Below are positions 197 to 4,331 of a stretch of 4,331 bases of DNA, piece after piece. The number at the start of each line of letters is the position of its first letter. Position 1 is the first letter of the stretch. The stretch lies in IMG/VR virus record IMGVR_UViG_2706794682_000011; one strand, 5' to 3'. Below the pieces are notes generated by a model that saw only the letters and a program-made list of their open reading frames with translations, had not been told where the DNA came from and searched no databases. Origin of the DNA: a virus (lineage: Duplodnaviria; Heunggongvirae; Uroviricota; Caudoviricetes). The translations under genes and the position numbers were made by a program.

Positions 197-574
197 TCAT
201 TTTTTCCCTCCAAATACGATGCCCTCTACGTCTTTGGAAGCTTTTTGTGATGACCACTCCTCTGAATCAGGTGATTTAATTAAAAATATTGTATCTCCAT
301 CAAAAATCGTATTTGTTCCGTAAAAATTCACATTTGATAGATCACCACCAAAAACCCTCTGCCCACTCGAGGTAATTGCCTCACCTAATTTAGTAAAATT
401 ACCAGCAATAGATGATTTTCTTTTTCCACTTCTATTCAAAGTGGCTTTAATTACACCACCACCATCCTTAGAGTTAAATAATTGAATGTCCACTCCAGCA
501 GTTGGTTGTATATATTTTGAAAGCTCTTTCTTGAACTTGTTAATATATTTATCTTTGTTTTCTTTGTTGGTCAT
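197..574 (-). CDS. hypothetical protein, 125 aa, no family recognised
   Basis: Complete ORF from ATG (574..572) to TGA (199..197). Sampled 60-nt stretches are about 30-33% GC, unlike the neighbouring prophage genes. The translation has no Cys or His, a Lys-rich N-terminus (MTNKENKDKYINKFKK) and a Gly/Ser/Asn/Thr-rich body. No signal peptide or recognisable catalytic motif. Divergent from the ybcN operon. Confidence 0.7.
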   Translation of the reverse strand: MTNKENKDKYINKFKKELSKYIQPTAGVDIQLFNSKDGGGVIKATLNRSGKRKSSIAGNFTKLGEAITSSGQRVFGGDLSNVNFYGTNTIFDGDTIFLIKSPDSEEWSSQKASKDVEGIVFGGKK

Positions 575-2328: not shown

Positions 2329-2712
2329 ATGCGTGATATTCAGATGGTTCTTGAGCGTTGGGGAGCGTGGGCGGCTAATAATCATGAAGATGTGACCTGG
2401 TCGTCCATTGCCGCCGGTTTTAAGGGATTAATTACTTCAAAAGTAAAATCTCGCCCGCAATGTTGTGACGATGACGCGATGATTATTTGCGGGTGCATGG
2501 CCCGTCTGAAAAAGAACAACAGCGATTTGCACGATTTATTAGTAGATTATTATGTAGTCGGTATGACATTCATGTCACTGGCAGGTAAGCATTGCTGCTC
2601 TGATGGTTATATCGGGAAAAGGTTACAGAAGGCTGAGGGCATAATTGAAGGGATGTTAATGGCATTAGATATCCGGTTAGAGATGGATATCGTTGTTAAT
2701 AACTCTAATTAA
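2329..2712 (+). CDS. quuD: Q-like late-gene antiterminator QuuD (YbcQ), 127 aa
   Basis: ATG at 2329 with GGAG 7 nt upstream. Translation [24 protein letters not shown]...[16 protein letters not shown]...IVVNNSN matches DLP12 QuuD. The ORF-track TTG at 2314 adds 5 residues and was not chosen. Confidence 0.9.
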
Positions 2713-2745
2713 TATGCCAATTGTTTACTAAAAATTATTAAAAAT

Positions 2746-2763
2746 GGGGCGTTGCAACGCCCC
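2746..2763 (-). terminator. perfect 18-bp palindrome GGGGCGTTGCAACGCCCC flanked by A/T tracts; candidate intrinsic terminator, best oriented for minus-strand (porin) transcripts
   Basis: The palindrome is read directly from the sequence. On the minus-strand transcript it is followed by AUUUUUAAUAAUUUUU. On the plus strand it is followed by CAAAAAU, which is not U-rich, so plus-strand termination would be weak. Confidence 0.4.
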
Positions 2764-2829
2764 CAAAAATAAAGGGTAATATATAACAGAAGGTTTATAT
2801 AGTTAGAAGCAAGGTTGTGCTCCTAAAGG

Positions 2830-2890
2830 AAGTGGCTTGAGGGAGCCACTTATATGTTGGGGAGGCAAAGCCTCCCGCAACATATCTTTT
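2830..2890 (+). terminator. tandem stem-loops ending in a T-tract; candidate terminator for rightward (quuD or late-promoter) transcripts
   Basis: Hairpin A is 2830-2851 (AAGTGGCT / AGCCACTT, 6-nt loop). Hairpin B is 2852-2885 (ATATGTTGGGGAGGC / GCCTCCC-G-CAACATAT, 15 bp with one bulge, 3-nt loop) and is followed by CTTTT at 2886-2890. It lies immediately 3' of the porin stop on the opposite strand. Confidence 0.4.
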
Positions 2891-2900
2891 AGTAATCAAA

Positions 2901-3947
2901 TTAGAACTGGTAAACCATACCTACAGCAACGATATCATCGGTAGCAACGCCAGATGCTTTCGTGAAATCGCTCTTATCAATCAGGTTGATTTTGTAATCA
3001 ACAAAAGTGGACATATTTTTGTTGAAGTAATAGGTTGCACCTACATCAATATATTCAACCAGGTCCTGATCACCCCACGCACCCAAGTCTTTTCCTTTAG
3101 ATTGCAGGTAAGCAACGGACGGACGCAGACCGAAGTCGAACTGATATTGTGCAACTACTTCGAAGTTTTGTGCTTTGTTGGCAATATGGTTATTACCAAA
3201 AACAGTCATGTTCTGGGTTTCAGAATAGGTGGTAGCCAGATAGATGTTGTTCGCATCATATTTCAGACCAGCTGCCCATACTTCAGCATTTTGACCAGAT
3301 GCATTCAGGCTGTTGTTACCGTAGATAACCTGATTATTAGTGCGGTCAGATTTAGCATAGGTTGCACCTACACCGAATCCTTCATACTCATAAGTAGTGG
3401 AGAAACCGAAACCATCACCATTAGCTTCAGTTACGTCAGTGCGGTCATTTTTACCCTGATACTGAGCAGCAAAGTTCAGACCATCAACCAGACCAAAGAA
3501 GTCGTTGTTACGATAAGTTGCAACACCAGTGGTGCGACCAGTCATGAACACATCTGTTTGAGTCCAAGTGTCACCACCGAATTCTGGCAGGACGTCAGTC
3601 CACGCACCGATGTCGTATGCTACACCGTAGTTACGGCCGTAATCGATGGAGCCGTAGTCACCGAATTTCAGGCCAGCGAAGGCAAGACGGGTTTTATCTT
3701 TGGAGGAACCTTGAGATTCAGCGCGGTTGCCTTTGAATTCATATTCCCACTGACCGAAACCAGTCAGTTGATCGTTGATTTGGGTTTCACCTTTGAAGCC
3801 AAGACGGGCATAAGTAGTATCACCATCATCTGCATCATTAGAGGAGAAGTAGTGCTTAGCATTAACTTTCCCGTACAGATCCAGCTTGTTACTGTCTTTA
3901 TTATAAATTTCAGCTGCCTGAGCAGACATCGCCATCAGTACTGATGC
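2901..3947 (-). CDS. nmpC: outer-membrane general porin of the NmpC/Lc (OmpC/OmpF/PhoE) family; 5' end truncated by the N gap
   Basis: Translation has the mature N-terminus [17 protein letters not shown] and the canonical C-terminus ...VAVGMVYQF with a terminal Phe. The frame stays open above the ORF-track Met to the gap edge (..[11 protein letters not shown] is signal-peptide-like), so the true start lies in or beyond the Ns. Stop TAA at 2903..2901. The C-terminus is intact. Confidence 0.95.
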
Positions 3948-4043
3948 NNNNNNNNNNNNNNNNNNNNNNNNNNNNNNNNNNNNNNNNNNNNNNNNNNNNN
4001 NNNNNNNNNNNNNNNNNNNNNNNNNNNNNNNNNNNNNNNNNNN
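3948..4043. other. run of 96 N: assembly or scaffold gap of unknown true length
   Basis: Counted directly as 96 consecutive n characters. It removes the porin start codon, the first part of its signal peptide and the proximal promoter. Confidence 0.95.
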
Positions 4044-4117
4044 ATTAACGGCTGTTATTTATAAGTGCTCTATAATTTGAAGGTTCAATTTAAACCGGCT
4101 AAAAATAACACTGGAAA

Positions 4118-4139
4118 TTATTTGTTGGTTATTTGTTGG
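4118..4139. repeat. perfect tandem direct repeat, 2 x TTATTTGTTGG, with further ATTTG motifs just downstream
   Basis: TTATTTGTTGG at 4118-4128 and again at 4129-4139, followed by GATTTGCTTATGTATTTGTAG. It lies in the AT-rich region expected to be upstream of the porin gene. Confidence 0.5.
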
Positions 4140-4228
4140 GATTTGCTTATGTATTTGTAGTGGTGTTTTCAATACTCGGTAGCATTCTCGCAAATATCAT
4201 TTAGTGGTTTACGTACGTAAAAAATTGG

Positions 4229-4331
4229 GGTAATGACTCCAACTTATTGATAGTGTTTTATGTTCAGATAATGCCCGATGACTTTGTCATGCAGCTCCAC
4301 CGATTTTGAGAACGACAGCGACTTCCGTCCC
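4229..4331 (-). mobile_element. IS1 insertion sequence, right-end terminal 103 bp including the terminal inverted repeat; element continues beyond the window
   Basis: The reverse complement of 4229-4331 is GGGACGGAAGTCGCTGTCGTTCTCAAAATCGGTGGAGCTGCATGACAAAGTCATCGGGCATTATCTGAACATAAAACACTATCAATAAGTTGGAGTCATTACC, which matches the IS1 right end as I recall it. The terminal inverted repeat GGTAATGACTCCAACTTATTGAT starts at 4229. Confidence 0.85.
4244..4331 (-). CDS. insB: IS1 transposase InsB, 3' end only (C-terminus ...GRKSLSFSKSVELHDKVIGHYLNIKHYQ)
   Basis: Minus-strand frame ends at TAA (4246..4244) and encodes the recalled InsB C-terminus. The 5' part is outside the window. Confidence 0.75.
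   Translation of the reverse strand, partial: GRKSLSFSKSVELHDKVIGHYLNIKHYQ

Follow-up and report, generated by a model that had tools for sequence, protein, structure and literature searches.

The DNA that directly follows the Q-like gene in the prophage stretch analysed here is very probably the 3' end of a convergent porin transcription unit, comprising the IpeX tail of the porin transcript and its terminator, and the late promoter PR' would lie beyond the porin gene. By locus identity, and on the review-level description of IpeX, this spacer is an allele of the ipeX locus, and the feature that it holds (ipeX together with convergent terminators) is already known. Our results are mainly a correction: the DNA right after Q in these prophages is the tail of a porin gene, encoding an RNA that represses host porins, and not the late switch. 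The latter is placed 1.6 kb further on, and an annotation made by analogy to lambda would mislabel both.

The spacer between quuD and the porin gene

The window (the whole stretch of DNA that was analysed, 4331 bp) represents the nin/Q region of a lambdoid prophage of the DLP12/PA-2 type and carries on its plus strand ybcN (NinB-like), ninE, ybcO, rusA, ylcG and quuD. The preliminary description of this DNA, made from its letters and open reading frames, had placed a convergent intergenic region after a Q-like gene, and both points hold: quuD (plus strand) ends at 2712, the porin gene (minus strand) ends at 2901, and the spacer between them (2713–2900) measures 188 bp. QuuD matches Pfam PF06530 (E = 3.5e-53) as well as the solved Q21 structures (E = 7.6e-7), and identical DNA in E. 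coli genomes carries the annotation quuD. The Q protein of the window belongs to the same family as the Q21 proteins whose structures were solved by Shi et al. and Yin et al. (2019), and over nucleotides 1–333 its gene shares 75–77% identity with Q of 933W-type Stx phages. The comparison with the PR'/qut region of phage 82 that the preliminary description had proposed was set aside, since QuuD falls in the Q21 family and not in the 82 or lambda families. The features on which the following sections rely are listed here by position.

2329–2712, plus strand: quuD, Q21-family late antiterminator of 127 aa, left neighbour of the spacer
2734–2900, minus strand: structured 3'UTR of the porin mRNA, putatively equivalent to the ipeX locus (sequence identity, location and span)
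2734–2745, minus strand: U-tract AUUUUUAAUAAU after the terminator stem
2746–2763, minus strand: predicted intrinsic terminator hairpin of the porin/IpeX transcript (consensus scan), 7-bp G/C stem, 4-nt loop
2803–2826, minus strand: third 3'UTR hairpin, 9-bp stem, 6-nt loop
2830–2851, minus strand: second 3'UTR hairpin, 8-bp stem, 6-nt loop
2852–2885, no strand assigned: most stable hairpin, a 15-bp stem with one bulged nucleotide and a 3-nt loop, the 5'-proximal IpeX stem when read on the minus strand
2901–3947, minus strand: porin gene of the nmpC/lc/OmpD type, a lysogenic-conversion gene (Pfam Porin_1, E = 2.6e-153)
4208–4228, plus strand: PR' remnant recognised by homology, −35 TTTACG at 4208–4213 followed by 15 nt of the −35/−10 spacer (presumed Q-binding region)
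4229–4331, no strand assigned: end of IS1 inserted into PR', matching annotated IS1 ends of thousands of E. coli records at 100% identity

The porin gene has its stop codon at 2901–2903 on the minus strand, its 5' end is masked by a run of N (3948–4043), and in identical phages it is annotated as porin or OmpD. Many E. coli chromosomes, annotated with quuD plus porin at this place, and temperate phages such as PhiR34_1 and PhiR68_2 match the stretch 2300–2960 at 100% identity; a version of it occurs in 3668 of 5426 complete E. coli genomes (about two thirds), with a median of one copy each. The gene order is common to K-12 DLP12, 434B, PhiR34_1 and PA-2 and runs from Q through the spacer and the reversed porin gene to a gap of about 590 bp, the holin gene and the endolysin gene.

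The hairpins that the preliminary description had seen in the spacer were confirmed. The sequences GGGGCGTTG/CAACGCCCC form a perfect 18-bp palindrome at 2746–2763, and two adjacent stem-loops, AAGTGGCT/AGCCACTT at 2830–2851 and ATATGTTGGGGAGGC/GCCTCCC(G)CAACATAT at 2852–2885, end in CTTTT (2886–2890). To these we add two further hairpins, one at 2803–2826 and a weak one made of A/U pairs only at 2780–2801. RNA folding energies, the calculation of which had been proposed in that description, gave −69.2 kcal/mol for the minus strand of the 188-nt spacer, compared with −36.4 ± 3.7 for shuffled sequences (z = −8.85; 0 of 200 as good), and −67.0 kcal/mol for the plus strand (z = −6.42; no shuffle as good). 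Individually, the hairpin at 2852–2885 reached −23.3 kcal/mol on the minus strand (z = −6.3) and −22.7 on the plus strand (z = −5.5), the hairpin at 2830–2851 (folded as plus strand) −13.5, and the palindrome −13.3 to −13.9, with −13.9 when it was folded as a minus-strand terminator. A perfect 18-bp palindrome is expected by chance about 0.02 times per 4.3 kb (4331/4^9). The hairpins of the spacer are non-random, and its structure is far above chance.

The spacer is 96.8% identical, over 186 of its 188 nt, to the DNA downstream of lc in PA-2 (J02580, a record of 1986), and shows the same 96.8% identity to the DNA downstream of the DLP12-derived nmpC gene in 434B, of which the K-12 copy is the same allele. 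IpeX is described as a 167-nt sRNA of the cryptic prophage DLP12 and of PA-2 (Castillo-Keller, Vuong and Misra, 2006). In the review-level account, ipeX corresponds to the untranslated 3' end of the porin genes nmpC (DLP12, qsr') and lc (PA-2), and the RNA is reportedly released from the longer porin transcript; it is reported to repress the host porins OmpC and OmpF post-transcriptionally, acting on ompC and ompF without simple complementarity and, for ompC, with no need for Hfq. The EcoCyc list of sRNAs places ipeX between chiX and sokE, which is consistent with the map position of the spacer. We predicted the ends of IpeX in the window from the "167 nt" of the review and coordinate arithmetic: counted from the base after the porin stop codon, such an RNA runs from 2900 to 2734 and ends inside the terminator U-tract, and it folds with −61.8 kcal/mol (z = −8.34).

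The window allele, 96.8–97% identical to the ipeX copies of K-12 and PA-2, agrees with them in its place directly after the porin stop codon, in strand (that of the porin), in hairpins, in terminator stem and in the 167-nt span. It differs from the K-12/PA-2 allele in the terminator loop (TGAG there and TGCA here, the latter completing the palindrome), in the loop of the first hairpin (AAA instead of AAC), in a G-U pair for an A-U pair in the third hairpin, and in the run that follows hairpin 2852–2885, which is CUUUU here and has one T more (CUUUUU) in K-12/PA-2. Moreover, the 3' end of the porin gene is intact in the window, whereas nmpC of K-12 carries IS5.

Regulatory sRNAs derived from 3'UTRs are a general class in enterobacteria, and IpeX resembles them in sharing the terminator of the mRNA and in its position right after the stop codon. 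Unlike the class, IpeX reportedly acts on ompC without simple base pairing and independently of Hfq, as far as the review-level account goes. Our own duplex search of IpeX against ompC and ompF, too crude to weigh for or against pairing, found no outstanding complementarity: over the whole length, the duplex energies could not be told from those of shuffled sequences (27/200 and 22/200 shuffles; ompA control, 108/200). No ipeX annotation is present in the RefSeq records, including NC_000913.3 (which lists micF), the deposited phage records leave ipeX unannotated, and neither the window nor its relatives gave a family in Rfam; hence automated readers will keep rediscovering ipeX. ORF1 of the 1986 PA-2 record was rejected as a conserved gene, as it starts in the first hairpin and a 1-nt indel leaves 12 codons of it here. 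This ORF1 is labelled "hypothetical protein" in some phage records.

Coding strand and boundary of the porin tail

A consensus intrinsic-terminator scan and a sigma-70-like promoter scan were applied to both strands. The sole terminator call in the spacer is the palindrome at 2746–2763, on the minus strand only, where seven pairs (six of them G-C) enclose a loop of 4 nt and are followed by ATTTTTAATA; on the plus strand the palindrome is followed by CAAAAAT. This agrees with the suggestion that the structures terminate the convergent porin transcript: the minus-strand consensus terminator coincides with what appears to be the 3'UTR locus of IpeX.

The variation of the spacer, compared in over 100 related copies from phages and prophages, bears on the strand as well. 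Variable columns make up 18 of the 102 paired positions versus 25 of the 71 unpaired ones (Fisher p = 0.012 with Escherichia albertii included and p = 0.017 without it). In hairpin 2852–2885 the loop reads AAA, AAC or AAT among relatives and the bulged base varies or is deleted, and the loop of the third hairpin (2803–2826) is also variable. The sole double-sided change is found in E. albertii, where the loop-closing pair of hairpin 2852–2885 is changed in a compensatory manner from C-G to U-A. Four one-sided changes, located in the strong hairpins and around the terminator, give G-U pairs that are workable on the minus strand only: for example, an A-U to G-U change in hairpin 2830–2851 of E. 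albertii keeps pairing only on the minus strand, and one pair of hairpin 2803–2826 alternates between G-U and A-U in relatives, where the plus strand would have an A-C mismatch. Two changes in the weak A/U hairpin (2780–2801) fit the plus strand better. Covariation was absent among the phage copies, and a scan of 120 viral loci added no informative variants; its scarcity follows from the 87–100% identity of the copies. Taken together, the strand evidence modestly favours an RNA made from the minus strand.

These observations also bear on three other readings of the hairpins. The strong hairpin at 2852–2885 with its CUUUU could at the same time serve as a plus-strand terminator of the Q/early transcript, which is compatible with the IpeX reading and which we hold to be possible, although somewhat short of an even chance. 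It is supported by the stability of the hairpin on the plus strand, by the U-run that follows (CUUUUU in K-12 and PA-2), by the UAAAAG that precedes the hairpin on the minus strand as a mirror image of the U-tract, and by the protection from antisense read-through that it would give to the porin gene. On the other hand, the U-tract is short (4–5 U, interrupted), the consensus scan made no call here, and the hairpin is equally well explained as the first stem of IpeX. The perfect palindrome might suggest a DNA site for a dimeric regulatory protein. It is, however, perfect only in this allele: its 7-bp arms are almost invariant in relatives (one G-C to G-U change), and most relatives break the symmetry of the four central base pairs, which read TGCA here and TGAG (K-12, PA-2), TGAA or GGAA elsewhere. 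Arms kept constant around four free central bases are the pattern of an RNA stem-loop and argue against a protein-binding DNA site, and the palindrome is flanked by a minus-strand U-tract, so that we regard an operator as highly improbable. A last reading, by which the hairpins would belong to a dispersed repeat (REP/BIME-like) with no locus-specific role, has in its favour that a REP-finding tool flags ipeX as "REP"-containing. Against this, E. coli genomes with the region carry it at a median of one place, in every case within this quuD–porin prophage context, its matches in phages and in the plasmid collection all adjoin a porin gene, and the window holds no second copy; a dispersed repeat is thus extremely improbable.

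The reading as a porin 3'UTR gains further support from the boundary of the conserved unit. A scan with the porin protein, for which each species was represented by one genome, brought up chromosomal OmpD-like porins of about 80% identity, with short, unrelated terminators, and one informative case: the E. albertii genome carries a porin 89% identical to that of the window, followed by a copy of the tail with 87% identity. There, the homology of the tail begins at the stop codon (2903) and ends at window position 2737, directly beyond the U-tract of the terminator: AUUUUU is retained directly after the terminator stem, and the homology stops just beyond. The E. albertii unit is flanked by a Bor gene and a gene for a CxxCxxCC-domain protein, with no Q. 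The occurrence of porin plus tail without Q suggests that the hairpin region belongs to the porin and not to Q. In phages the spacer is almost always beside quuD (113 of the 114 usable copies in the sampled phages and prophage contigs, the remaining copy having IS1 after the terminator), and hence the boundary argument rests on the single E. albertii genome.

Phage "morons" are accessory genes with their own promoter and terminator, and the porin gene resembles them as an accessory gene placed in reverse between phage operons. Given the sequence comparisons above, we consider it very likely, as part of the explanation as a whole, that a lysogenic-conversion module, made up of the porin promoter, the nmpC/lc-type gene, the 3'UTR and the terminator, has been inserted in reverse between Q and PR'. 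The PA-2 record carries annotated CRP sites ahead of lc.

Position of the late promoter

In lambda, PR', the Q-utilisation site and tR' lie directly downstream of Q. The preliminary description had accordingly expected the late promoter, qut site and tR' in the spacer, had found no convincing −35/−10 pair there by eye, and had allowed that the late promoter may lie beyond the porin gene; the latter two statements stand, and the expectation is not supported. The consensus scan likewise detected no sigma-70-like promoter on the plus strand of 2713–2900, and the best −10-like hexamers in the spacer, picked by eye, have no −35 at 16–19 bp. Local alignment of 2691–2900 with PR' blocks of the Stx-phage type was not significant, 38 and 275 of 500 shuffles being as good.

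As a reference we used the Stx-phage PR', which gives StxS and was mapped by dRNA-seq, with its terminator mapped by Term-seq 258 nt away (Sy et al., 2020). Shifted by +142 to fit the current Sakai record, these coordinates put the PR' start site at position 946 of our Sakai locus (L088), seven bases after TTTACG-N16-TATCAT, in a promoter that overlaps the Q stop codon. The transferred map agrees exactly with two published landmarks: GUAUU falls at +173, and the T-run of GCCAGCC...GGCTGGC ends at +258. In DLP12-type phages a homologous block, TTTACG-N16-TATGCT, is followed by AAGAGTGGTTAC and a tR'-like hairpin (AAACCCGCCGTCGAGCGGGTTTTT) that in the intact relatives stands before the holin gene. 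The DLP12-type block is 77–78% identical to that of Stx phages over 82 nt (E down to 9e-9), and in PhiR34_1 and K-12 it has the porin promoter region on one side and the holin gene on the other. This putative PR' lies 1.64 kb past the Q stop codon and 186 nt before the holin gene. Its coordinates are 5555–5582 in an intact relative (L002), about 7196–7223 in K-12 (L003) and 4208–4228 in the window.

A late control region in the spacer itself, with PR', Q-utilisation site and tR' as in lambda, would have in its favour the location immediately downstream of Q, the terminator-like hairpin plus CUUUU on the plus strand (2852–2890), and the related 933W and Sakai phages, in which PR' overlaps the end of Q. 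It nevertheless appears very improbable to us. The spacer lacks a plus-strand −35/−10 pair and does not align significantly with the PR' block that goes with this Q family; that block sits between porin and holin instead; the U-tract of the palindrome is on the opposite strand only; and the spacer travels with the porin in the E. albertii genome that lacks Q. As for a terminator on the strand of Q, hairpin 2852–2885 with its CUUUU may be one, with no promoter before it and the porin gene in place of lysis genes after it. The evidence thus favours a spacer that forms the end of the porin unit and a PR' on the far side of the porin gene.

Other phages agree with such a displacement of PR'. In POCJ13 a DnaD-like ORF is inserted after Q and the PR' block follows on its far side, 780 bp from Q, and in Lambda_ev203 a reverse-oriented lipocalin gene follows Q. 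On the gene orders compared, the gap from Q to PR' is a recurrent accessory-gene slot in this Q family, which makes a PR' "directly after Q" an unsafe expectation. The late cassette of the Q21/Q933 family consists of PR', a Q-binding element, a sigma-dependent pause and tR'; the window has a Q of this family and the left half of PR'. It departs from the family cassette in the 1.6-kb porin module that separates Q from PR' and in the IS1 that breaks PR'.

Several other positions for the promoter were considered and dropped. A promoter-like sequence inside quuD (TTTGCA-16-TATTAT, 2526–2553, plus strand), seemingly homologous to the Q sequence of Stx phages, was abandoned since the Sakai start maps after TTTACG-N16-TATCAT. 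A vestigial half-PR' in the spacer (AATTGTTTAC....TAAAAAT compared with AATAGTTTACGATCGTAAAAAT) had an alignment score no better than shuffles. A late promoter at about 4140–4200, suggested by repeats of the ATTTGTTG type and a TAGCAT pause, showed no convincing −35/−10 spacing by eye and was superseded by the PR' homology. In the part of the DLP12 literature that describes a reporter construct of "-121 to +650", the +1 maps about 524 nt before essD, next to the start of nmpC; we suspect from this description that the promoter concerned is the RpoE promoter and not PR'.

Predicted function of the module and IS1 in PR'

We propose that leftward transcription of the porin gene would pass the stop codon (2901–2903), run through the stable hairpins at 2852–2885, 2830–2851 and 2803–2826, and end at the Rho-independent terminator, whose stem (2763–2746) is followed by AUUUUU. 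The porin tail of about 167 nt would be the IpeX RNA, with predicted ends, and the hairpins presumably stabilise this tail and define the processed RNA. According to the published account in its review-level form, IpeX reduces OmpC and OmpF during synthesis of the phage porin, and the allele of the window may be expected to do the same. PA-2 uses OmpC as its receptor, and the IpeX module would on this view be an exclusion device.

The minus-strand terminator would at the same time shield Q and the nin genes from antisense transcription out of the porin gene, and on the plus strand hairpin 2852–2885 with CUUUU may plausibly halt rightward transcription that is not antiterminated, after Q. The Q protein itself is predicted to act not in the spacer but at PR', its loading site, which lies shortly before the holin gene and is separated from the spacer by the porin gene. 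Tail-to-tail intrinsic terminators are usual between convergent genes, and the spacer is similar in having one hairpin with a U-tract on the minus strand and another with a U-tract on the plus strand. It differs from a single bidirectional terminator in having two separate hairpins about 90 nt apart, and from plain tail-to-tail terminators in that a conserved structured RNA with a reported regulatory role lies between them.

Since the plus-strand hairpin falls within ipeX, and only about 35 nt separate the Q stop codon from the minus-strand terminator, the two transcripts would overlap by about 150–175 nt. We speculate that N-antiterminated rightward read-through of both hairpins on induction may yield an RNA fully complementary to IpeX and the porin mRNA and so switch the module off lytically, which we consider rather unlikely; if true, the overlap would serve as an intrinsic antisense switch by which the lysogenic-conversion module is silenced in lytic growth. 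Conversely, read-through of porin/IpeX transcription could damp Q.

In the window, this arrangement is interrupted. The PR' remnant was recognised by alignment with PhiR34_1, K-12 DLP12, POCJ13 and Sakai Sp5; the native sequence ends at 4228, and IS1 splits PR' at 4228/4229, taking the place of the −10, of tR' and of the lysis genes in the window, at least locally. With IS1 inside PR', QuuD is predicted to be unable to switch on the lysis genes from this window, which Q would no longer reach. The arrangement of porin and IS1 is rare, as two of the 5426 complete E. coli genomes cover at least 80% of window positions 3600–4331.

IS1 within the late promoter

The region from the masked 5' end of the porin gene to the right end of the window holds the following features:

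3948-4043, run of 96 N, hiding the porin promoter region, start codon and signal peptide
4118-4139, tandem repeat, two exact copies of TTATTTGTTGG with a period of 11
4141-4165, two looser repeat copies, ATTTGCTT and ATTTGTAG, following the TTATTTGTTGG pair at roughly helical spacing
4208-4228, remnant of the late promoter PR', with the -35 TTTACG and the spacer kept
4229-4331, IS1 end, inside PR' and two bases ahead of the expected position of the -10 hexamer

Given that IS1 lies within PR', we predict that the lysis genes of this copy can no longer be switched on by Q. The porin-IS1 arrangement is rare: among 5426 complete E. coli genomes, only two show 80% or more coverage of window positions 3600-4331. 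The repeats at 4118-4165, which are conserved in PhiR34_1 and K-12, are placed between PR' and the region of the porin promoter; a regulator of one or other of these divergent promoters could bind there. For the published DLP12 reporter construct, the '+1' is set some 524 nt ahead of essD in K-12, which falls at the K-12 site matching the masked bases.

Cargo between the Q gene and PR'

The slot that separates PR' from a Q gene of the QuuD/Q933 type carries different cargo among phages, two examples being:

Lambda_ev203 (L089) 1878-2560, reverse-oriented lipocalin (Blc) gene
POCJ13 (L090) 1881-2660, ORF with a DnaD-N domain

The porin-ipeX module is the third cargo type found there. Accessory genes seem to have been inserted in this slot repeatedly.

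Hairpins and promoter-like matches

Terminator-like hairpins near PR' and an ORF at the strongest hairpin of the window were located as follows:

Sakai Stx-phage record (L088) 969-995; intact DLP12-type relative (L002) 5613-5640; POCJ13 about 2715-2745, terminator-like hairpin near PR'
Window 2854-2892, plus strand, and 1986 PA-2 record (L086) 2428-2637, ORF1 of the PA-2 record, which certain phage records list as a 'hypothetical protein'

In Stx phages the PR' hairpin, with its T-run, occupies +24 to +50 of the transcript, although the published 3' end is +258 (Sy et al.); it may serve there as a pause, a partial terminator or a Q-loading aid. The homologous hairpin of DLP12-type phages is the sole terminator-like site ahead of the holin gene. 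ORF1 starts at an ATG within the strongest hairpin, and was rejected as a conserved gene because a 1-nt difference 3' of this hairpin leaves it only 12 codons in the window.

Two overlapping sigma-70-like matches lie inside quuD:

2549-2578, minus strand (antisense), GTGACA-18-CATAAT, 10/12
2526-2553, plus strand (sense), TTTGCA-16-TATTAT, weaker

The antisense match, the best in the entire window, is reminiscent of the lambda anti-Q promoter paQ. Promoter-like matches across the window are no commoner than in shuffled sequence (7 versus 8.4).

The left end

The A+T-rich left end (with 1-190) contains one ORF:

197-574, minus strand, 125 aa

Pfam and PADLOC returned zero matches for this ORF. 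Its counterpart position in K-12 is occupied by ybcM/ylcH. The ORF may be a further accessory gene or moron.
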